The notes below the pieces were generated by a model. That model searched no databases, was not told where the DNA came from, and worked only from the letters and a program-made list of their open reading frames with translations. The position numbers and the translations under genes are program-made. Below are positions 1 to 23,202 of a DNA stretch of 64,000 nt, one piece after another (position 1 is the stretch's first letter; every line of letters starts with the position of its first letter). This DNA comes from Escherichia phage Ecwhy_1: the sequence record MH791411.1; one strand, given 5' to 3'.

Positions 1-2741
1 CTATTACTGGTGATCTGACCGTATCTGGAACTGTTACCCCTGGTGCAATTGACCTAAGTACTACCGATATTAGTTCTAAATCCCTAAGTACTACTGAAGG
101 TGCTACAATTGGTGGTGACCTAGTTGTTAATGGTTCAATTGATTTAAGTTCTTCCAATGTTTCAGCAATTACCCTTGCTAGTTCTGGTAATACTACCGTT
201 GGTGGTAACCTAGTACTAACAACTGGTGTTGTAACTGGCAGCCCATCTGTATCTGGCAACCTTTCAGTTGCAGGTACTGCGGCAGTAACTGGTGCAACTA
301 CCCTAACTGATATCGTAAATATCGGTAAGAAAGTAACTGTAAGCACTGGTGGTATTCAAGTAGTTGCAGGTGGTATTAATACCGACGCTATATTAGTATC
401 CGGTGATACAACTTTAAACAACACTACTGTAAACACTACCTTAAATGTAACTGGTCAAAGTACAGTAGCTGCACTAAGTGCTGCATCTTTGAATGTATCT
501 GGTGATAGTACTGTTCAAAAACTAACAGTTGAAGGTGAATTGGTTCCACAAGGTGGTATCGACCTAACTGGTGCAGATATTTCTGCTAATAGTCTTGCAA
601 CTGCTTCAACAATCACTGCAACTGGACTAAGCACACTAAGTGGTGGTGTAAGTACTACTAATGTTACTGCATCTGGTACAGTGAATGCTGGTAGTTTGGA
701 TGTTACTAACAACGCAACCGTTGGTGGTAATTTGGGTGTAACTGGTTCATTAACTTCTGGTCCATTGAGTGTAACAGGTATTGCGAATATTACTGGTGTA
801 ACAACTGTTGGTTCATTGGTTTCCGGTGCAGTATCTGGTAGTACTGGTACATTTAGTTCAACATTAGGTGTAACTGGTGCAGCTACATTTGACAATGACG
901 TAACTGTTGAAGGTGTATTCACCCCAGCAGGTGGTTTAGACCTAACAACTTCTGATATTACGGCTAAGAGTTTGTCAGTATCTGAAACTATTCACTCTGA
1001 TGGTGCAGCTTCCTTTGGTGGTAACACAACAGTAGGTGGTACATTGGGTGTAACTGGTGCAGTAACTGCTCCATCGGCAACCCTAAGTGGTACTGGTACT
1101 GCACTAGCAGTAACTAATAATGCAACTATTGGTGGTACATTAGGTGTAACTGGTCAAGCATCACTTGGTTCTATAGTAACTTCTGGCGTTTCTGCAACAA
1201 GTGGCTCTTTCAGTACTACTCTTGGCGTTACTGGTGCTGCGACATTTGGTAACGATGTAACTGTAGTTGGAACACTAACTCCTGGTAGCTTAGATCTAAC
1301 TGGTGCAGATATCTCTGCTAAAACACTAACTCTATCTGAAACATTAAATGCAACAGGTAATACTACCCTTGGTGGAACATTAGGTGTAACTGGTTTAGCA
1401 ACAATTGGTGGAACACTAACGTCTGGTGCAGTAACTGCTCCATCTGCAACCTTGAATGGTTCAGGTACTGGTCTAGCAGTAACTAACAACGCAACCGTTG
1501 GTGGAACATTAGGTGTAGTTGGTCAAACAACACTAGGTTCTGTTAAAACTGGTGCAACTCTAACAGTTGGTACACCATTAGGTGAGCAGCCTGAAACTGT
1601 ACAGATTATGCCAGACACTTATATTGCTGGTAAACTACGTGTTGAAGGTGGTATTAACGCAGATATCGATGTTGGTGGACAAACACTAGAACCGTTTGCA
1701 GTAATAGCATCTGATTCTTTATCTTCTGCTGGTAATATTACTGCTGGTGCAGCAATTATTTCAAGTTCTGCAACAATTGGTGAAGTCGGTTCACAAAACA
1801 ACAACCTAATCGTTAATGGTAACGTTGTAAACAACGGTAACTTCACTGTTACTGGTGTACTAAATGCACAATTGAACCAAGCAGATTCCGATGTAGCTGT
1901 TAAGTCTTTGACTGCAACTAACAACGTATCTGCTGGAACCACATTAAGTGCAGGTACTGCAATTACTGCTGGTACTTCCATCACTGCAACTGGATTACTT
2001 AAAGGTAATACTTTAGAAGTTACTACTACTGGTTCATTTGGTGGTTTAGTAACTATGTCAAGTGGTGCAAATATCACTGGTGCAATGACCACTGCGGGTA
2101 ACATAACAGTGGGTGGCAATATCACTGCAACTGGTACTGCTGGATTCGCTGCAACAACCGTTTCTACAATTACAACAACAGGTTTGGCTACAATTGCAAG
2201 TGCATCCATTACTGGTAACGCAACAGTAGGTGGAACACTAACTGCGAATGGTAACGTAACATTAGGTGACGCAGCGGCAGACGTTCTAACCGTTAATGCA
2301 ACTTCATCATTTAAAGAAAATGCTGTGTTTGATAAGGCAGTAACAGTAACTGGTGCACTAACCACTACTAATGCTAACTTAACTACTACAACAGTAACTA
2401 CCAAAAAGTATGATGTAATCCCAACTCAAGTTACATCATCAGTAATTGCTCCAACCGGAACATGGACTCCAGATGGTACAAGTAACGTATACTTCATCAC
2501 TCTAGACCAAGATACCACGTTGGCTCCAATTACTGGCCTAATTGGTGGTGGTAAAGCTGCATCAGTATACATCTATGTTAAACAAGATACAACTGGTAAC
2601 AGAAACTTTACAACTGATGGTACTTATGCTGTTGTTGATGGTGAACTAAACAAAACTGCTGGTAGTGTGACCATTTACCAAGTAATTTATGATGGTGTAA
2701 GTCCAGTTACTGATTTGTTCATTGCACAACGTACTGCTTAA
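1..2741 (+). CDS. repeat-rich fibrous virion protein (tail-fibre-like), 5' end outside window
   Basis: Frame 3 is open from the first bases of the window to TAA at 2739-2741, so the listed ATG at 489 is internal. Gly/Thr/Val/Ser-rich protein with reiterated modules (TPxxLDLTxxDIxAKSL, GGTLGVTG, AVTAPSATL, LAVTNNATVGG). Confidence 0.7.
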   Translation, partial: ITGDLTVSGTVTPGAIDLSTTDISSKSLSTTEGATIGGDLVVNGSIDLSSSNVSAITLASSGNTTVGGNLVLTTGVVTGSPSVSGNLSVAGTAAVTGATTLTDIVNIGKKVTVSTGGIQVVAGGINTDAILVSGDTTLNNTTVNTTLNVTGQSTVAALSAASLNVSGDSTVQKLTVEGELVPQGGIDLTGADISANSLATASTITATGLSTLSGGVSTTNVTASGTVNAGSLDVTNNATVGGNLGVTGSLTSGPLSVTGIANITGVTTVGSLVSGAVSGSTGTFSSTLGVTGAATFDNDVTVEGVFTPAGGLDLTTSDITAKSLSVSETIHSDGAASFGGNTTVGGTLGVTGAVTAPSATLSGTGTALAVTNNATIGGTLGVTGQASLGSIVTSGVSATSGSFSTTLGVTGAATFGNDVTVVGTLTPGSLDLTGADISAKTLTLSETLNATGNTTLGGTLGVTGLATIGGTLTSGAVTAPSATLNGSGTGLAVTNNATVGGTLGVVGQTTLGSVKTGATLTVGTPLGEQPETVQIMPDTYIAGKLRVEGGINADIDVGGQTLEPFAVIASDSLSSAGNITAGAAIISSSATIGEVGSQNNNLIVNGNVVNNGNFTVTGVLNAQLNQADSDVAVKSLTATNNVSAGTTLSAGTAITAGTSITATGLLKGNTLEVTTTGSFGGLVTMSSGANITGAMTTAGNITVGGNITATGTAGFAATTVSTITTTGLATIASASITGNATVGGTLTANGNVTLGDAAADVLTVNATSSFKENAVFDKAVTVTGALTTTNANLTTTTVTTKKYDVIPTQVTSSVIAPTGTWTPDGTSNVYFITLDQDTTLAPITGLIGGGKAASVYIYVKQDTTGNRNFTTDGTYAVVDGELNKTAGSVTIYQVIYDGVSPVTDLFIAQRTA
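36..1560 (+). repeat. in-frame tandem repeat array (units of roughly 110-120 codons) inside the fibre gene
   Basis: Successive protein units beginning near nt 36, 546, 921 and 1275 share the same motif order (TPxGxLDLTxxDIxAKSL, GGTLGVTG, AVTAPSATL, LAVTNNATxGGTLGV). Confidence 0.7.
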
Positions 2742-2752
2742 TAATTATAATA

Positions 2753-2784
2753 AAAAAAACGGTGTCATCAATTATGGTGACACC
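2753..2784. terminator. hairpin downstream of fibre gene (possible weak or bidirectional terminator)
   Basis: Inverted repeat ggtgtca/tgacacc (2761-2784) preceded by an A-run 2753-2759; no clean T-run on the plus side. Confidence 0.4.
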
Positions 2785-2807
2785 ATCTTAACAAGTGAGG
2801 TAGATAT

Positions 2808-3587
2808 ATGTTTACATATGTAAAAGGTAGTTCTAAAGAAAATTATGAATTGGGTAACATCATCTCCAACCCAGTTGGTGTTAAGGGTTTAAAAGAACGC
2901 CCTGGGGCAACTCCAGATGATGAACAAACATATCGTTATTTGTACAGTGATATCCGTGCACTTTATGGTATTTCAAGTAAAGATGGTTCTGAAATTGAAC
3001 CTAATAACGCTGTTCGCAAAGAAGAGGGTTTCTGGTGGTTGGAATATAAGAATGTTGGTAATGTGAACGCAATTAATGAGAATTTGGAATATATTAAACT
3101 ACAAGATAGTAATCAACCAGTCATCACATTCTTAGAAGAAGCAGAAGGTGAATATAAAGAGTTAACAGTACTGAAAACTTATAATTATGTTGATATGGAC
3201 ATTGCAGCAGTTAAATCTGATCTGAAAGCACGCACAGTATCATCTCGTAGTGATCGTATTAATGCTGGTTATATGTTTAACGGTCATCGTTATAGTACTG
3301 ATCTAGCTGGTCGTCAAATGCTTCTTAATTATTATACACAAGTAACTTCCGGTTCTGATAGCGTTTCGATTTTCCTTGATGACGCAATTGTAAAACTATC
3401 TGCTGCTGAAATGACTCAACTATACACTGAAGCATTTGCTATGGTTGAATCCCTATTTGCAGAGTGTAATAAGCAATGTGCTGACATTGATGCAGTTCCT
3501 GATGCTGATGAAGATGCAATTTATAAAGCACAACAGGCGGCTGTATGGGTATATGAAGGTATTGATATTCCTGAGCGTATTCGTTAA
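2808..3587 (+). CDS. hypothetical protein, possibly a fibre accessory/assembly protein
   Basis: 259-aa ORF with gaggt RBS upstream of the ATG, sitting between two fibre genes; no motif I can name with certainty. Confidence 0.5.
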   Translation: MFTYVKGSSKENYELGNIISNPVGVKGLKERPGATPDDEQTYRYLYSDIRALYGISSKDGSEIEPNNAVRKEEGFWWLEYKNVGNVNAINENLEYIKLQDSNQPVITFLEEAEGEYKELTVLKTYNYVDMDIAAVKSDLKARTVSSRSDRINAGYMFNGHRYSTDLAGRQMLLNYYTQVTSGSDSVSIFLDDAIVKLSAAEMTQLYTEAFAMVESLFAECNKQCADIDAVPDADEDAIYKAQQAAVWVYEGIDIPERIR

Positions 3588-15754: not shown

Positions 15755-16771
<1,017 letters not shown>

Positions 16772-17866
16772 TTAAAAATCTCCTAATATGTTACCTAATC
16801 CGAATTTTGAGCTTGCAGAAGAAACGATGCTTCCTAAACCAATAGCATTTGCACCTCTTGTCACTGCGGAACCTATGTTTCGGATGGTATCAGGAGTAAT
16901 GTCACCACGAAGGATATCACCAGCACTACTGATTATATCACTAACTGATGTTCCTGCTCGGATAATTTTACCAACTGTCGAAATTCCTTTAGTTTTGTCA
17001 TCAAGTTCACCAAAGTACTTAAAGAATCCACTCACACCAAGACCTTCAGTATCGGTGATGAGTTGTGCAATTTCCATTGTAGGGACACCAATACTCAAGT
17101 ACCCTTCAGGACCAAAGTTGTTACACGCTTCATAACGCATAGTCAAAGATAATAGTGCTGGGTCACCTTCACTTTCCATAGATTTAGTTTCTAATTGTAT
17201 ATCTTCGATGAATACATTTATCATGTTATGAACTGTATAGGTTTCATTATCAATTTCATAGATATTAATTGATTTGAAAAAGTACTGGTTGTCGTAGTTA
17301 CCATTGTTCATTACAGAACGACCCCAGTTTCCACCTAAACCATTGAAATTTTCGGGTGTACTGAGTACGTCATTTCGGTAAGATTGTGGGTTCTTGTCAA
17401 AGAAGTCACCATAGTAGAACTTACGATATGCGTCCATTAGGAGATATCCAGCACCATCAACAGTATCGTAGAAGACAACATTACTTGGTTTATAAACAAT
17501 ATCACCAGTAACTAAACGTTTTTTGTTGTATTGGTTTACGGTTTCAACACTAAAAGAAAAACTAGGAAGTGTTACATCTTTTACAAAGCACGATACATTA
17601 TTAACATCAAAATCAGTATGTGTATCTGGGAGTTGGGTTTTAATAAAGTTCTTTGCGAACGGGGTTAGTACAAATTCGATAATAAAACTGTTCTTAAATT
17701 TTGGTAAATTATAGAATGAAAAACCCATTTCACCTGCTGTACCAAACACACGTTGTGCAGCGTTATAATTCTCAAAAGCTGGTTCTCTAATGATGTTGAT
17801 ATTGTCAATAACACCATTAACTATACTAGTTCCAGTACTGACAAATGAATCAAAAAAATCACTCAT
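16772..17866 (-). CDS. tail-tube-fold protein with C-terminal extension (possible tube initiator/baseplate-proximal)
   Basis: 364 aa; segments PKFKNSFIIEFVL and VKDVTLPSFSFSVETVNQYNKKRLVTGDIVYKPSNVVFYD parallel the PKAKYKFRV and RDSVGNASAKAL regions of the two upstream tube genes. Confidence 0.5.
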   Translation of the reverse strand: MSDFFDSFVSTGTSIVNGVIDNINIIREPAFENYNAAQRVFGTAGEMGFSFYNLPKFKNSFIIEFVLTPFAKNFIKTQLPDTHTDFDVNNVSCFVKDVTLPSFSFSVETVNQYNKKRLVTGDIVYKPSNVVFYDTVDGAGYLLMDAYRKFYYGDFFDKNPQSYRNDVLSTPENFNGLGGNWGRSVMNNGNYDNQYFFKSINIYEIDNETYTVHNMINVFIEDIQLETKSMESEGDPALLSLTMRYEACNNFGPEGYLSIGVPTMEIAQLITDTEGLGVSGFFKYFGELDDKTKGISTVGKIIRAGTSVSDIISSAGDILRGDITPDTIRNIGSAVTRGANAIGLGSIVSSASSKFGLGNILGDF

Positions 17867-17877
17867 GGGTTATCTCC

Positions 17878-18654
17878 TTATAATCCAATGCTACCGAAAA
17901 CACGGTCAATGATATCTAATCCTTGGTTTACGTTTTCAGGTAAAAGTGAATTTATTCTAGTACTGTACATTTCTTCGATATTATCGAATTGGATACAATT
18001 ATCAGGTTTTATTGTAATAACCATTTCAACAGGAGAACTTGAACTATAGTCAAGTGAATCATATGATATATTTTGTATAACACATCCTGTTAGTACAAAG
18101 TACTCCATAACGCCAGCACTATTGTATGATGAACCACCAATGAACTGATCAACAGCGTTGACTAATCCAGTATTGTTGGTAGCGGCAGTTGTTGCATTAA
18201 CTAATGTGTTTCTTCCCAAGTCTTCTAGTGTATCATCAGAGTTGCGACCATTCAACATCTGAATGACAATTCCGAACTTATATGAACCATAATCATGGTC
18301 AGTTCTGGAAGTAATTCTTCGTTGAAAATCTAATTGTTTCTGTAATTGTCTTGACAAGGCTTTTGCTGATGCATTACCAACTGAATCACGGATAGTTAAA
18401 GTAATTGGGTCCCAATCGTGACTACCAATGTAAGATGTATTTGTTGTAAATTGATATAGTTTATGAGTACTGAAAGTAACAGTAGGTCTATCAACTTTAT
18501 CAACATCTAATGCAATGTGATCACGCTCATCTATATCAGTACCGAAATTATATACAATAACACGAAATTTGTATTTTGCTTTCGGTTGTAACATTGAACG
18601 GTTACGTCCTGATGGTAGAGGAACGCCATATTTATTAATCATGTTATTTGCCAT
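17878..18654 (-). CDS. tail tube protein, paralogue B
   Basis: 258 aa; shares YGVPL, QPKAKYKFRV and RDSVGNASAKAL with the adjacent tube gene; AAGAGG RBS. Confidence 0.7.
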   Translation of the reverse strand: MANNMINKYGVPLPSGRNRSMLQPKAKYKFRVIVYNFGTDIDERDHIALDVDKVDRPTVTFSTHKLYQFTTNTSYIGSHDWDPITLTIRDSVGNASAKALSRQLQKQLDFQRRITSRTDHDYGSYKFGIVIQMLNGRNSDDTLEDLGRNTLVNATTAATNNTGLVNAVDQFIGGSSYNSAGVMEYFVLTGCVIQNISYDSLDYSSSSPVEMVITIKPDNCIQFDNIEEMYSTRINSLLPENVNQGLDIIDRVFGSIGL

Positions 18655-18697
18655 AGCAACCTCTTTTATTTTATAAGGTATTATACTTTATTTAGCA

Positions 18698-18725
18698 TAA
18701 AAAAAGCCCCGAACTAGTTCGAGGC
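18698..18725 (-). terminator. rho-independent terminator between the two tube genes
   Basis: Stem gccccgaact/agttcgaggc (18706-18725, one mismatch); on the minus strand followed by a run of 7-8 U. Confidence 0.7.
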
Positions 18726-18743
18726 TTACGTTTAAAAGAAAAA

Positions 18744-19430
18744 TTAATTTTCGTAGAAGTTACTATCTGGTAGAGTAGTACTACTAATGTTGGTTTGTGC
18801 ACCACTAATAGAGGTAGCAGTGGATGGGTTACCGAAACCAGTAATTTCATCACCGAACGCTTCACCATTAGGACCGAGTTTTGCACAGCCGTCTGGTTGA
18901 ATTGTCATAGAAATAACTTGTGCTTCACTTGAGGAATAATCCCAGTCACCAAAGTTACTAGATTCGATAAAGCAGCCTTGACATACCCAAGTACTCAAAG
19001 TACCTTCAAAAAGGTTAGAAGTGTTTTCACTATTGGAGCCATCTAGCTCTTGAATCCACATTTCAAATTTGAACTGGGAATCAGTCATACGAGATTCTTG
19101 ACTGTAATAGTTAAATTCTTTACGCATTTGGTTATAAAGAGCTTTAGCAGAAGCATTACCAACTGAATCACGGAAAGCCACATCAATAGTATCCCAAGTA
19201 TACTTACCTTTATAGTGAGCAGAACTGTTATAACTATGCACAGTGACGTTTTCATGTGATACAGATACAGCACCAACGGTGTTGGTATCTAGGGTAATCA
19301 TATTGCCATCGTCGTTAGCACCGAAGCCAAAGAAAACAACACGGAATTTATATTTTGCTTTAGGTTGTTTCATAGAGATACGACCACCGCCAGCGAGCGG
19401 AACGCCATATCGATCAAGCATTGTAGCCAT
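18744..19430 (-). CDS. tail tube protein, paralogue A (probable major tube protein)
   Basis: 228 aa; AGGAG RBS; first gene after the sheath and followed by a strong terminator, as expected for an abundant structural protein. Confidence 0.75.
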   Translation of the reverse strand: MATMLDRYGVPLAGGGRISMKQPKAKYKFRVVFFGFGANDDGNMITLDTNTVGAVSVSHENVTVHSYNSSAHYKGKYTWDTIDVAFRDSVGNASAKALYNQMRKEFNYYSQESRMTDSQFKFEMWIQELDGSNSENTSNLFEGTLSTWVCQGCFIESSNFGDWDYSSSEAQVISMTIQPDGCAKLGPNGEAFGDEITGFGNPSTATSISGAQTNISSTTLPDSNFYEN

Positions 19431-19486
19431 TTATATTCTCCTGTTATGGAATGACATCTTTATATTATTTATCTATTACTTACACT

Positions 19487-19733
19487 TTTATTGAAGTATC
19501 TCATCAACAGGAAACCAATCTATATTCACACAATACAAGTACTTTTTTTCTTGTTTATGATCTGTATAGTTTACACCAACCGACCATTTACCATTTGTGT
19601 AAACATTGTATTCTCGAATTATACCGACAATGTTCCAAATTTTGTATAAAAGCTTTAAGGATTTTTACGGCATCGTCCTGTGTTGCTACAGTTTTACTTA
19701 CATCTTGTAATGTTTTTTTAAGTATTTCTTCCA
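19487..19733 (-). pseudogene. small ORF with apparent frame break between sheath and tube genes
   Basis: ATG at 19733 with AGGA RBS; this frame stops at 19587-19589, and a second frame stays open to 19487 with protein-like sequence (YNVYTNGKWSVGVNYTDHK). Could be a frameshifted gene, a programmed shift or a sequence error. Confidence 0.3.
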
Positions 19734-19781
19734 TATTATTCCTGATCGTTGAATTAATAACATAACGTATTTAATTTTAAA

Positions 19782-19810
19782 CAATAAAAAAGGGAACCAA
19801 AAGGTTCCCT
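19782..19810 (-). terminator. rho-independent terminator after the sheath gene
   Basis: Hairpin agggaacc-aaaa-ggttccct (19791-19810); on the minus strand followed by ttttttatt. Confidence 0.7.
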
Positions 19811-19817
19811 TAGTGTT

Positions 19818-22481
19818 TTATTGAGTCTTTTCAATACGAATAGGTACGTAAATGAAGTTGATAGACTTAGTAGGTTGGATTGCAATATCCATCCAAAGTT
19901 CGTTACGGTCAATACGTTCAGAAGTGTTGTTACTTTCGTCACAAACTACTGCGAAGTTATATAGACCTTGTTGTTGAACGATTTCAGCTAGGAAGCTATT
20001 CACTACACCACTGAATTCCTGACGAGTACTTGGAGTATTCAAACGGAATAGGAATGGTTCAGAGATGATTTCTAGTTGACGACGAATGTAAACAACCAAA
20101 CGAGCAACGTTAACACGGCTTAGTGCAGAGGTTTGGTTAGCAGATAGTGTTTTATCACCATATACTAGCAAGCCACGGTTAGGACGCATTGCAATTGGGT
20201 TAATGTTGTTGGTATACATCACGTCACGTTGACCTTGGTTGTATACTACTGGTTGATATTCACCTTCACTGTTAATGAAACCAGTACTTGCAGCGTTGGT
20301 TACAACACCACGAGTAGTACCAGCAGGTGGATACCACACATAACTAACACTATCACTGTACGCATAGGTACGCATTGCAACAGTACTGCCTGGAACTGCA
20401 ACTTCTTCACCATCAACGTTAGTACTTAAACACCAGCCCATGTACTGAGCAGCATAATCATATGCAGAAGTACGGCCTACTGAACCATTACTTGGTGCGT
20501 TGTTTGCGTTGGTAGCCCATTCTTGAACTGCACTACCGTTTCCGGTTGGGTTCAAACGAGCAGGTACATCAGTTACGATAAACGCTGTTTCTTTACGATC
20601 AGTGTTTAGGGTAATACATTCATCTAGAGTTTCTACATAACCAGGAACACAGATTAGGTTAAAGTTGATGAATTCAGAACGGATATCATCATTACCGATG
20701 ATTACAGCAGCTAGTGCTTCAACGATTAGTTTGCGTTGTGCTGCACGACCGAATAGACCTGCACCATCAAGACTAACACCACTAACAACTTGCCATTGAC
20801 CATTAACCATTTTCTTAACAACACCTTCGGTATTACCGAGGTCAATTGCAAGCATACCATTCTGATAAAGAGCAGCAGAAGCAACTTGTTCAGGGAAGTT
20901 AAAGTCAGCGAAAATCATACCGTTTAGAGTACTTTGGTCAGTATTGTCTAGTTTAACCCACTCACCATCAACGTTACGATAGAAATCATAACCATCAATT
21001 CCTTGAGATAGAGGGCGTACCCAAATTAGACGGTCTGCCGAAGGTTCATCAACTTGAACATATTTGTTATCTTCTTGTACTAGATCCCATTCGTCATTTG
21101 CAACATCTGCAATGTACATGGTAACAGTTAGGTTATCGGAATTACCGAAATCATACCAAATAGTACCGTCTTTAGCAATACTACGTGGAACAGAAGAGCT
21201 AACACGTAAGTTATTAACGTTAACTAGAGAATAGTTGTTACTATCTACAGTTAGTTTAGCTAGTTCATTCGCTGCAAAAATATCATCACCGCTTTGGGTA
21301 ACTTTAAAGCTATAACCTTTGGTGTTTGTAACTACCAAACCGCCATTAGATTCACGTTTGAATTTGAATCCATCATTGATAAGATCAGCACTAACATTTA
21401 GATTATCGATGATAGTTTGAGTATTAATTACGCCACCTTGTGGTACTGCAAGTACTTTAACAGATTTGTTTAGGTAAGCGAAAGTCAAATAACTATTTTC
21501 ACCAGCTTGCTCAATAACAGTTTCACCTAGTGGTACTGCTGGAGCACTAATTGCTGATAGTTTTGCACTTTGAATATAGAAAGAGAAACTCTTACTATCG
21601 TCATCAAAACGGCAAGCAATATAACTGTTGTTTAGTACACCACTCTTAGCTTCAACTTCTTGGAAAGAATTACCAGTATATGCTGGAACGATATTCCAAA
21701 CTTGAGTTAGAGATGCATAACGTTTTAGAACAAAGCGAGTGCCAAAATAGTTTGAACCATTTTGAGTATAACCATCACGAATCCATACGTTACCTTGTTC
21801 AACAGTTGAACCAACTGGAACTTTGTTGATTGGTGATAGATAAGTTTCAACCTGTACTAGACCAGATGCTGCACGTTTGTACATAAGCATTTGACCATTA
21901 CTTGGCTTATAACGTAGAACTAGATCATCAACGTTTAGACCAACTAGGCTAACATCGTCAACTTCTTCAGAACTTACGATGGTAACAGGCTTCAATTGCC
22001 AGTCATAGAAGCTGCTTGGGCTGTCTTTCTTAGCAACATAAGCTTCAATTTGTGATTGAGCAGCATCAAACCATAGAGTACCATTTGGTACTGGACCAGT
22101 TGGTGCAGTTGCACTTGGTGATAGTTGAGCTAAATCGATATCAGCACGAATAACATATGCACGGTTGGTGATGCCTAGATAAGAATACACAGCATGTAGA
22201 CCATATTCGTTTAGTTCGTCACCTTGAACAACTGAACCATTGTTCATTTGGAAAATTGGTGAGCCAAATGTATCTAGTGAGCTTTTCTGTGATGTTAGTA
22301 GCTGTAGTTTACCAGCGTTTGCTTTAGTGGTTCCCGCAGCGATTGCACTGCTACCAGGAACAAGTTTGTCTTCAGCAGTAGCGATTACAAATAGTGGTAC
22401 TGTGCCAGGAGCAGCAGCAGTACTCATACTTTCATCAGTTACTGAAATGGAAACGCCAGGTGAGAGTAGATCTCCTGCCAT
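19818..22481 (-). CDS. contractile tail sheath protein
   Basis: 887 aa; N-terminus MAGDLLSPGVSISV; C-terminal region (RVNVARLVVYIRRQ, VVCDESNNTSERIDRNEL, IQPTKSINFIYV) matches the conserved sheath C-terminal domain as I recall it from T4 gp18; GGAGGA RBS. Confidence 0.85.
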   Translation of the reverse strand: MAGDLLSPGVSISVTDESMSTAAAPGTVPLFVIATAEDKLVPGSSAIAAGTTKANAGKLQLLTSQKSSLDTFGSPIFQMNNGSVVQGDELNEYGLHAVYSYLGITNRAYVIRADIDLAQLSPSATAPTGPVPNGTLWFDAAQSQIEAYVAKKDSPSSFYDWQLKPVTIVSSEEVDDVSLVGLNVDDLVLRYKPSNGQMLMYKRAASGLVQVETYLSPINKVPVGSTVEQGNVWIRDGYTQNGSNYFGTRFVLKRYASLTQVWNIVPAYTGNSFQEVEAKSGVLNNSYIACRFDDDSKSFSFYIQSAKLSAISAPAVPLGETVIEQAGENSYLTFAYLNKSVKVLAVPQGGVINTQTIIDNLNVSADLINDGFKFKRESNGGLVVTNTKGYSFKVTQSGDDIFAANELAKLTVDSNNYSLVNVNNLRVSSSVPRSIAKDGTIWYDFGNSDNLTVTMYIADVANDEWDLVQEDNKYVQVDEPSADRLIWVRPLSQGIDGYDFYRNVDGEWVKLDNTDQSTLNGMIFADFNFPEQVASAALYQNGMLAIDLGNTEGVVKKMVNGQWQVVSGVSLDGAGLFGRAAQRKLIVEALAAVIIGNDDIRSEFINFNLICVPGYVETLDECITLNTDRKETAFIVTDVPARLNPTGNGSAVQEWATNANNAPSNGSVGRTSAYDYAAQYMGWCLSTNVDGEEVAVPGSTVAMRTYAYSDSVSYVWYPPAGTTRGVVTNAASTGFINSEGEYQPVVYNQGQRDVMYTNNINPIAMRPNRGLLVYGDKTLSANQTSALSRVNVARLVVYIRRQLEIISEPFLFRLNTPSTRQEFSGVVNSFLAEIVQQQGLYNFAVVCDESNNTSERIDRNELWMDIAIQPTKSINFIYVPIRIEKTQ

Positions 22482-22575
22482 ATTAAATCCTCCAAAAATA
22501 ATTGGTTATTCGAATTATATTCGTATAGTCTTATTTATTGAAGGATTTGAATGTCAAGTCCTAATTGTTTTAATT

Positions 22576-23202
22576 TCACTTATTGGCATAAATAACGCTC
22601 AATGCTTGTTGGTGCAACGCTTCAATTGTGCTATTATTTTGTACAATGATATCAGGATTATTGATACCAATCCACGCCCATTCAGATTCATGAACTGATT
22701 CTAACTCAATTGGTTTCATGCTAATATCACCTTTATTAAAAGATGCTGCTAAACCATACCAGTGTGGGAGGGTACGCTGAACTTCAATCACAATACCATT
22801 TAATGAACGAATCATTTTTAGTTCATTTGGAAATCGGCAGTCAGTAATGATAATATTCCCTTCAACAGATTGCATTGACTTCTCTAAGCTATGGACCCAA
22901 ATATCATTATGAAAGTACTTACGCAAAATATTAGTACCGTAATTCTGTAATACCCAACGAGGGGAAACATCATCACGCCCCAACTTCTCACACCAGTACT
23001 GGTCTGGCTCTTCACGGAGTTTACGACTTTCCTTAGTCGAACCCTCAAGCATTTCACGATCCCATCCAAAGATAGCAGCAACTGAATCTTTAAGATTAGT
23101 TGCAAATGACATTCTTGTGTAACCATTATTGATAAAAGTTTCACCAAAAGTATCTTTGCCACTACCGATAGTACCGTTAATTGCAATTATTTGTCTTTCC
23201 AT
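22576..23202 (-). CDS. deoxynucleoside monophosphate kinase (T4 gene 1-like)
   Basis: 208 aa; P-loop GTIGSGKDT, plus WVLQNYGTNILRKYF and IITDCRFPNE segments paralleling T4 dNMP kinase. Confidence 0.65.
   Translation of the reverse strand: MERQIIAINGTIGSGKDTFGETFINNGYTRMSFATNLKDSVAAIFGWDREMLEGSTKESRKLREEPDQYWCEKLGRDDVSPRWVLQNYGTNILRKYFHNDIWVHSLEKSMQSVEGNIIITDCRFPNELKMIRSLNGIVIEVQRTLPHWYGLAASFNKGDISMKPIELESVHESEWAWIGINNPDIIVQNNSTIEALHQQALSVIYANK

Follow-up and report, generated by a model that had tools for sequence, protein, structure and literature searches.

Why should a phage carry three tail tube genes in a row, and which part of the tube would each product build? The question arises from Escherichia phage Ecwhy_1 (sequence record MH791411.1), of which we analysed one stretch of 64,000 nucleotides (nt), hereafter called the window. 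A preliminary description, made from the letters without database searches, had noticed three consecutive genes for proteins of the tail tube fold and a strong terminator behind the first. It had taken this arrangement for high expression of one major tube protein and lower expression of paralogues that act as tube initiators or lie near the baseplate. Its observations were confirmed in part, and its interpretation found partial support. The three open reading frames (ORFs) are indeed consecutive on the minus strand, and we named those of 228, 258 and 364 amino acids (aa) tube1, tube2 and P3:

18744..19430, minus strand: tube1, probable major tail tube protein and T4 gp19 equivalent (228 aa, 25.06 kDa; phrog_4542, tail tube, E = 6.9e-86)
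17878..18654, minus strand: tube2, a close paralogue of tube1 (258 aa, 28.88 kDa; phrog_4542, E = 1e-80)
16772..17866, minus strand: P3, a divergent tube-fold protein (364 aa, 40.26 kDa; core at about residues 55-260)

In T4, two paralogues of the tube protein cap the tube: gp54 starts its assembly on the baseplate hub, and gp3 is the terminator at the neck end. We propose, with a probability of roughly 0.7, that tube1 is the major tube protein with a late transcription unit of its own, and that tube2 and P3 form special end rings of the gp54 or gp3 kind, encoded in an operon that restarts behind tube1.

The trio is an ordinary tail tube gene cluster of a known group, the RaK2/121Q-type jumbo coliphages, and is already annotated. 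Window bases 16300-19900 share 99.9% identity with Escherichia phage fEgEco12 (PP777464), a RaK2/121Q-like jumbo myovirus, about 85% with 121Q, PBECO4, phAPEC6 and G17, and 67-73% with RaK2, GAP32, CBB and others; the window represents a further isolate of the fEgEco12 type. The corresponding trios (RaK2 gp042-044, GAP32_199-201, CBB_205-207, 121Q 552-554, phAPEC6 gp275c-273c and fEgEco12 g297-299) have the same gene order, terminator and promoter-like boxes, with protein identities of 57-100%, and show no substantial difference from the window. All three genes carry the label "tail tube protein" in fEgEco12, 121Q (RefSeq), PBECO4, CBB and others, in annotation of the RefSeq or Pharokka type. 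Scans with hidden Markov models (HMMs) covered the 64 kb of the window and the 42 kb that follow in fEgEco12, and found no further member of the tube family.

Tube1 and tube2 are paralogues, as had been claimed. They share 32% identity (BLASTP, E = 2e-35), and each of the three motifs quoted in the preliminary description (YGVPL, QPKAKYKFRV and RDSVGNASAKAL) is exact in both. The duplication is still detectable in the DNA, in one stretch of 84 nt (71% identity) and another of 60 nt (77%). Tube2 departs from tube1 by an insertion of about 36 residues (approximately residues 143-180) and by a different C-terminus. In tblastn searches, genomes from all parts of the RaK2-like clade showed two tube-family places each, and PA5oct-, Atu_ph07-, Phosso-, XacN1- and Xoo-sp13-like phages only one.

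P3 had been credited with the same core motifs, but none of the three strings is present in it (0 of 3), and BLASTP links it to tube1 or tube2 with an E value of about 0.01 only. What stood of the claim was the homology itself. When a P3 profile of 50 sequences was compared with a tube1/tube2 profile of 58 sequences, hhalign returned a probability of 97.9% over 189 columns (E = 4e-13). Degenerate remnants of the motifs were aligned, with PKFKNSF of P3 over PKAKYKF and YDTVDG over RDSVGN. Searches against PHROG matched P3 to phrog_13438 ("tail tube"), phrog_4542 (E = 8e-6) and phrog_45 (E = 2e-4). At the level of sequence profiles, P3 is thus a real, if remote, homologue of tube1 and tube2.

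The same membership emerged from comparisons with T4, whose tube proteins are represented by PDB entries 5IV5, 5W5F and 9MKB, Pfam PF06841 and phrog_45. All three window proteins matched phrog_4542, the tube1/tube2 family, which T4 gp19 also matches (E = 5.3e-10). T4 gp19, gp54 and gp3 all belong to phrog_45, and P3 and tube1 touch this family as well. T4 gp3 matches the Pfam family Phage_T4_gp19 at 1.5e-12. Unlike the T4 family, none of the window proteins reached the threshold of PF06841: a Pfam scan of tube1, tube2 and P3 returned no family, and PF06841 was not matched at E <= 0.1. When the PDB was searched by sequence, with the single proteins and with profiles of their families, nothing relevant was found, only chance matches to TRPV1, a lipase and ABCB7 at E > 0.2. 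The protein gp119 of the Klebsiella jumbo phage phiKp24 (PDB 8BFK) was absent from these matches and ranks well below the T4 proteins.

Failure of tube2 (17878..18654) or P3 (16772..17866) to adopt the tube fold was what the preliminary description had named as counting against it. Both predicted structures adopt that fold, a beta-sandwich with a long beta-hairpin. They match T4 gp19, gp54 and gp3, with the T4 proteins as top structural matches, and also Hcp and the tube proteins of the Photorhabdus virulence cassette (PVC). T4 and the window phage further agree in having three tube-fold proteins, namely a small major one, a close paralogue that is slightly longer, and a divergent third that is larger. 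In both, the tube gene follows the sheath gene. The idea of one major tube protein with specialised paralogues fits this precedent. The window proteins are larger (228, 258 and 364 aa) than T4 gp19 (163 aa), gp3 (176 aa) and gp54 (320 aa). Their genes are contiguous, whereas those of T4 are scattered, with gene 3 at 75 kb, gene 19 at 100 kb and gene 54 at 122 kb.

Published proteomics of orthologues indicate that tube1, tube2 and P3 are all virion components. In phAPEC6 virions, two peptides of gp275c (tube1), three of gp274c (tube2) and seven of gp273c (P3) were detected next to 36 of the sheath protein (PMC7247149); we confirmed the orthology by locus tags and molecular weights. In RaK2 virions, gp042 and gp043 were detected and gp044 was not (PMC3622015, Table S3), with three peptides for tube2 versus five for tube1 (PMC3622015). 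The RaK2 study did not identify the tube and proposed gp106/gp107 for this function (PMC3622015). CBB_205 (tube1) and CBB_207 (P3) appear in the CBB virion table (PMC5259590), which lacks even the sheath protein, so that absences from it mean little (PMC5259590). In PA5oct, the tube protein and the P3-like protein carry tags for electrospray ionization tandem mass spectrometry (ESI-MS/MS). Gene order and these published data together place virion structural proteins beside the sheath gene. The phAPEC6 and CBB studies list members of the trio as hypothetical or structural proteins and did not analyse the trio (PMC7247149, PMC5259590). The phAPEC6 tail comprises 25 sheath rings, and its map has a resolution of 25 A (PMC7247149).

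The similar peptide numbers of tube1 and tube2 raise the possibility that tube2 is a second major subunit of a heteromeric trunk, built of mixed hexamers or of alternating or segmental rings, with P3 as the only minor end protein. Retention of the tube1 core motifs in tube2 at 32% identity and fixation of the duplication across the entire RaK2-like clade would suit such a trunk. We nevertheless consider it unlikely. The solved contractile trunks among our matches (T4, phiKp24, phiKZ, A-1(L) and Pa193) were deposited with a single tube protein. The insertion and the altered C-terminus of tube2 lie at positions that tube1 would use for ring-to-ring contacts. Tube2 is also missing from the CBB virion table, a weak point in view of the equally missing sheath. 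We weighed a possible link of tube2 with the "hairy" whisker rings of CBB and phAPEC6 and discarded it, as RaK2 and GAP32 have tube2 and no whiskers are reported there.

The proposed separation of tube1 from its paralogues comes from the transcription signals around the following sites:

19818..22481, minus strand: tail sheath gene (887 aa; Pfam PF17482 Phage_sheath_1C, E = 1.7e-14; phrog_10581, tail sheath, 1507 bits)
22538-22532, minus strand: ATAAATA box about 50 nt upstream of the sheath ATG
19790..19811, minus strand: intrinsic-terminator-like hairpin after the sheath gene (9 bp, then TTTTTTAT; dG -14.9 kcal/mol, z -4.3)
19458..19472, minus strand: late-promoter-like box ATAAATAATATAAAG before tube1 (ATAAATA(NNN)TAAAG, 35 nt upstream of the ATG)
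18697..18727, minus strand: intrinsic-terminator-like hairpin with T-run after tube1 (stem 18727-18704; 10 bp with 5 GC pairs, 7 T)
18689..18696, minus strand: GCTAAATA box before tube2 (a CTAAATA variant directly after the hairpin T-run, 34 nt upstream of the tube2 ATG)

The terminator that had been placed at 18698..18725 corresponds to the hairpin after tube1. It lies 16 nt past the tube1 stop, has a folding energy (dG) of -13.5 kcal/mol (z -3.5 versus shuffles) and is conserved across genera. We compared 12 phages from several genera (the window phage, G17, Turkey5, RaK2, Hallingskeid, EJP2, Serratia BF, fHe-Yen9-03, Munch, XbC2, CBB and GAP32), and all 12 have a GC-rich hairpin followed by a T-run at the same position of the tube1-tube2 spacer. 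The stems differ among them, including paired changes (GCCTCGAA/TTCGGGGC, GCTCCGATG/CGTCGGAGC and GCCCTGGA/TCTAGGGC). Since the MAFFT alignment of this region was out of register in the stems, individually folded hairpins were compared instead. The hairpin after the sheath gene likewise has a counterpart at the same place in each of the 12 phages. It was also called on the plus strand, where its T-rich tail is weaker; the stem is palindromic and could act both ways. Both hairpins are annotated as terminators in G17, by an ARNold-based annotation, and in Munch. On the minus strand from 17878 to 16343, no terminator-like site was found.

With a GC-rich hairpin and a U-tract downstream of a stop codon, the tube1 hairpin has the form of an intrinsic terminator and would, judged by this form, end the tube1 transcript. 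It might instead be a 3' stabiliser or a processing site on a longer late transcript, with any differences in expression arising after transcription. Late phage transcripts often read through weak terminators, and the adjacent box could belong with the hairpin to one conserved RNA element. We regard this as improbable: a GC-rich stem of 8-13 bp followed by six or seven T is the canonical form of a terminator, it is kept in 12 of 12 genomes despite the changes in the stem, the sheath gene shows the same arrangement, and the G17 annotation calls both sites terminators.

The GCTAAAT box directly behind the hairpin (18696-18689) had been missed in the preliminary description. GCTAAAT is invariant in an alignment of ten representative sequences and present in all 12 tube1-tube2 intergenic regions. 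The box block before tube1 is conserved in the same 12 phages and reads TATAAATACATTAAAGA / TATAAATA in GAP32, CBB and XbC2. For CBB and GAP32, ATAAATA was predicted to be the late promoter, with 35 sites, and it resembles the T4 late promoter TATAAATA (PMC5259590); the transcription signals of the window resemble the latter as well. NTAAATA boxes stand 26-50 nt upstream of at least 12 window gene starts that have ribosome binding sites, including sheath, neck and several virion protein genes. At the sheath, tube1 and tube2 genes, the late promoter motif lies a short distance upstream of structural genes. The [A/C/T]TAAATA boxes are located as follows:

51303, 41465, 38207, 26176, 24408, 22538, 19472, 18695, 15762, 15240 and 13137, minus strand: [A/C/T]TAAATA boxes
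3638, plus strand: [A/C/T]TAAATA box

The box before tube2 is the only TGCTAAATA in the window. CTAAATA occurs nine times on the minus strand of the window and not at all on the plus strand, and may represent a second class of late promoter. Since neither TGCTAAATA nor CTAAATAWW was enriched in the window relative to shuffles, the promoter reading draws on position and conservation across genera. A mis-specified first version of the pattern, ATAAATANNTNTAAAGA, had no match in the window. The GCTAAATA box is likely a variant late promoter motif that serves as the restart point for an operon of tube2, P3 and a gene for a gp4-like head completion protein. An invariant late-promoter-like box behind a terminator gives tube2 and P3 their own predicted start signal. 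The layout is therefore a late box, the sheath gene and a terminator; a late box, tube1 and a terminator; then a variant late box, tube2, P3 and the gp4-like gene onward, with the activity of these signals predicted from their form. As for tube2 as a second major subunit, its own conserved promoter-like box would favour such a role, and the conserved terminator between tube1 and tube2 argues against it.

In the arrangement we favour, tube1, the probable major subunit by homology and gene position, would be made from a short late transcription unit consisting of an ATAAATA-type box, an AGGAG ribosome binding site, the gene and an intrinsic terminator. The tube1 gene lies directly downstream of the sheath gene, and its AGGAG site is a strong one. 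The protein would polymerise as stacked hexameric rings inside the sheath. Transcription would restart at the GCTAAATA box behind the terminator and continue through tube2, P3, the gp4-like gene and beyond. Tube2 and P3 would each close one tube end with a specialised ring, like the gp19 paralogues of T4. Lower expression of the paralogues, as the preliminary description had it, is plausible in view of the terminator and the non-consensus box; the peptide counts give it no support.

Which of the two would sit at which end? We lean slightly towards P3 as a gp54-like initiator and tube2 as a gp3-like terminator or a second baseplate-proximal ring. P3 is likened to gp54 because both are larger and divergent, and tube2 to gp3 because each is a close, slightly longer copy. 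The phrase "initiator or baseplate-proximal" in the preliminary description names one option only, as the neck-end terminator gp3 of T4 matches as well as gp54. The roles could also be distributed the other way, with P3 as a gp3-like terminator at the neck, where its Gly/Ser-rich tail would contact the sheath terminator, the neck or the tape measure, and tube2 as the initiator ring near the baseplate. Foldseek puts T4 gp3 first for P3 (6.9e-7 versus 1.0e-6 for gp54). A P3-like gene always lies directly upstream of the gp4-like gene, also in PA5oct and in a 295-kb metagenomic phage. T4 gene 3 is part of a 1-3-2-4 block, and a gene for a deoxynucleoside monophosphate (dNMP) kinase flanks the window cluster likewise. 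Size points back to gp54, to whose 320 aa the 364 aa of P3 are nearer than to the 176 aa of gp3. So does the only weak profile signal of P3, which is to gp54 homologues. We regard the exchanged roles as possible and would hold to them only tentatively.

Profile comparisons were made in two ways. Against single T4 sequences, hhalign with the P3 profile was non-significant throughout (gp54, E = 0.044; gp3, 0.074; gp19, 0.19; gp48, 0.51). T4-family alignments were then built from IMG/VR loci, with 25 gp54, 12 gp3 and 11 gp19 sequences. In HMM searches with these, tube1 reached a non-significant 9 bits with a gp19 homologue, and neither P3 nor the tube proteins gave a significant profile match to the gp3 family. 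The T4 protein gp48, which is also 364 aa long, was rejected as a counterpart of P3. None of the three window proteins matches PF11091 or phrog_230, both of which T4 gp48 itself matches (E = 8.5e-158 and 1.3e-100), the window cluster lacks a gp48 (PF11091) homologue, and the equal length is a coincidence.

Several points weigh against our assignment of one major tube protein and two end rings. Fold and profile comparisons do not separate an initiator from a terminator, as gp3, gp54 and gp19 score nearly alike, and with the T4-family alignments both hhalign and hmmsearch remained non-significant (best, P3 versus gp54, with 130 columns aligned by hhalign at E = 0.015 and 9 bits in the HMM search). 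The RaK2 and phAPEC6 peptide counts, which are non-quantitative, show no excess of tube1 over tube2 or P3. The role of tube1 is read from its homology and the position of its gene. The duplication is missing from PA5oct-, Atu_ph07- and XacN1-like relatives, and tube2 may therefore have a lineage-specific role and not that of a universal initiator or terminator. Finally, the GCTAAATA box could match the consensus promoter in strength.

The Gly/Ser-rich C-terminal extension that had been noted for P3 is present. It comprises about 100 residues (261-364; window 16772-17083), is rich in Gly, Ser and Ile (16.9%, 13.5% and 13.5% of the last 89 residues) and ends in GLGNILGDF. AlphaFold predicted no fold for it (predicted local distance difference test, pLDDT, < 50). 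Among P3 orthologues the extension is more conserved than the core (72.9% versus 68.2%), which argues that it is functional. We detected no counterpart of this conserved tail in T4 gp54 or gp3. The tail resembles a glycine zipper, and comparable stretches rich in G-x-(I/V/L), such as GNVLGDITGDIFGG, occur at the two termini of the P3-like protein of PA5oct. We give little credence to the idea that tube2 is an additional tube component, such as a distinct segment or an extra adaptor ring of very large decorated tails, or, as a separate matter, to the idea that the P3 tail is a lumen-lining or membrane-active element released on contraction.

On the minus strand, the gene order of the locus is a dNMP-kinase-like gene, the sheath gene, a 48-aa ORF, tube1, tube2, P3 and the gp4-like head completion gene. 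The P3 gene starts 11 nt past the tube2 stop, and the gp4-like gene abuts the P3 stop. The remaining features of this segment are:

19588..19734, minus strand: 48-aa ORF in the sheath-tube1 spacer (g296 in PP777464)
16343..16771, minus strand: gp4-like head completion protein with a TnsA-like endonuclease fold (PF08722, E = 8.6e-17; phrog_218, head closure, E = 1.2e-39)

The dNMP-kinase and gp4-like genes bracket the window cluster (16343-23202), just as genes 1 and 4 bracket gene 3 and gene 2 in T4 (650-3338). This bracketing may be a trace of common ancestry in gene order. As PF08722 denotes the N-terminal domain of a TnsA-like endonuclease, some records name the gp4-like protein Tn7 transposition protein TnsA, and this conflict between head completion and TnsA naming touches many jumbo phage records.

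Outside the RaK2-like clade, PA5oct (gp287/gp286) and the distant 295-kb metagenomic jumbo phage keep the order sheath, tube, P3-like and gp4-like as in the window, but have a single small tube gene, no tube2 and a longer P3-like protein (422-492 aa). In PA5oct, a homing endonuclease follows the sheath gene, and then come the genes for the tube protein (206 aa), the P3-like protein (492 aa), a virion protein of 151 aa and the gp4-like protein; in the metagenomic phage, three small genes separate the sheath gene from those for the tube protein (186 aa), the P3-like protein (422 aa) and the gp4-like protein. In Vibrio phage 2.275.O, tube1 adjoins the sheath gene and the second tube copy lies directly before the P3-like gene, with two genes between the tube copies. 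Even there, the tube2-like and P3-like genes remain neighbours. These gene orders point to an ancient unit of tube, P3-like and gp4-like genes and to tube2 as a later duplication that travels with P3. That tube2 always stays with P3 and not with tube1 in split clusters also counts against its role as a second major subunit.

The sheath-tube1 spacer (19431-19817) measures 387 nt in the window and in 121Q-type phages versus 105-121 nt in RaK2, GAP32, CBB and Munch. The 48-aa ORF within it is missing in RaK2, GAP32 and CBB and had no match in a PHROG search; PP777464 calls it "coat protein", apparently in error. Further inserts at this spacer or at the neighbouring tube1-tube2 junction are a 134-aa ORF in fHe-Yen9-03, the homing endonuclease of PA5oct and the two genes of Vibrio phage 2.275.O. 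Because the inserts differ among relatives, the terminator-flanked junctions around tube1 look like insertion hot spots. The record of Serratia phage BF (NC_041917, 2695-3384) cuts the tube1 orthologue short at 157 aa, with the remainder intact in another frame; this suggests a frameshift in that record, most likely from a sequencing error.

The stakes of these findings are small, as tube paralogues that act as initiator and terminator rings are already established for T4. Their value lies in cleaning up the annotation of RaK2-like phages: they correct the proposal of gp106/gp107 as the RaK2 tube, and under the reading proposed here the threefold label "tail tube protein" hides three different roles. 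In addition, the conserved junction of terminator and late promoter could help to define the limits of late transcription units throughout the RaK2-like clade.

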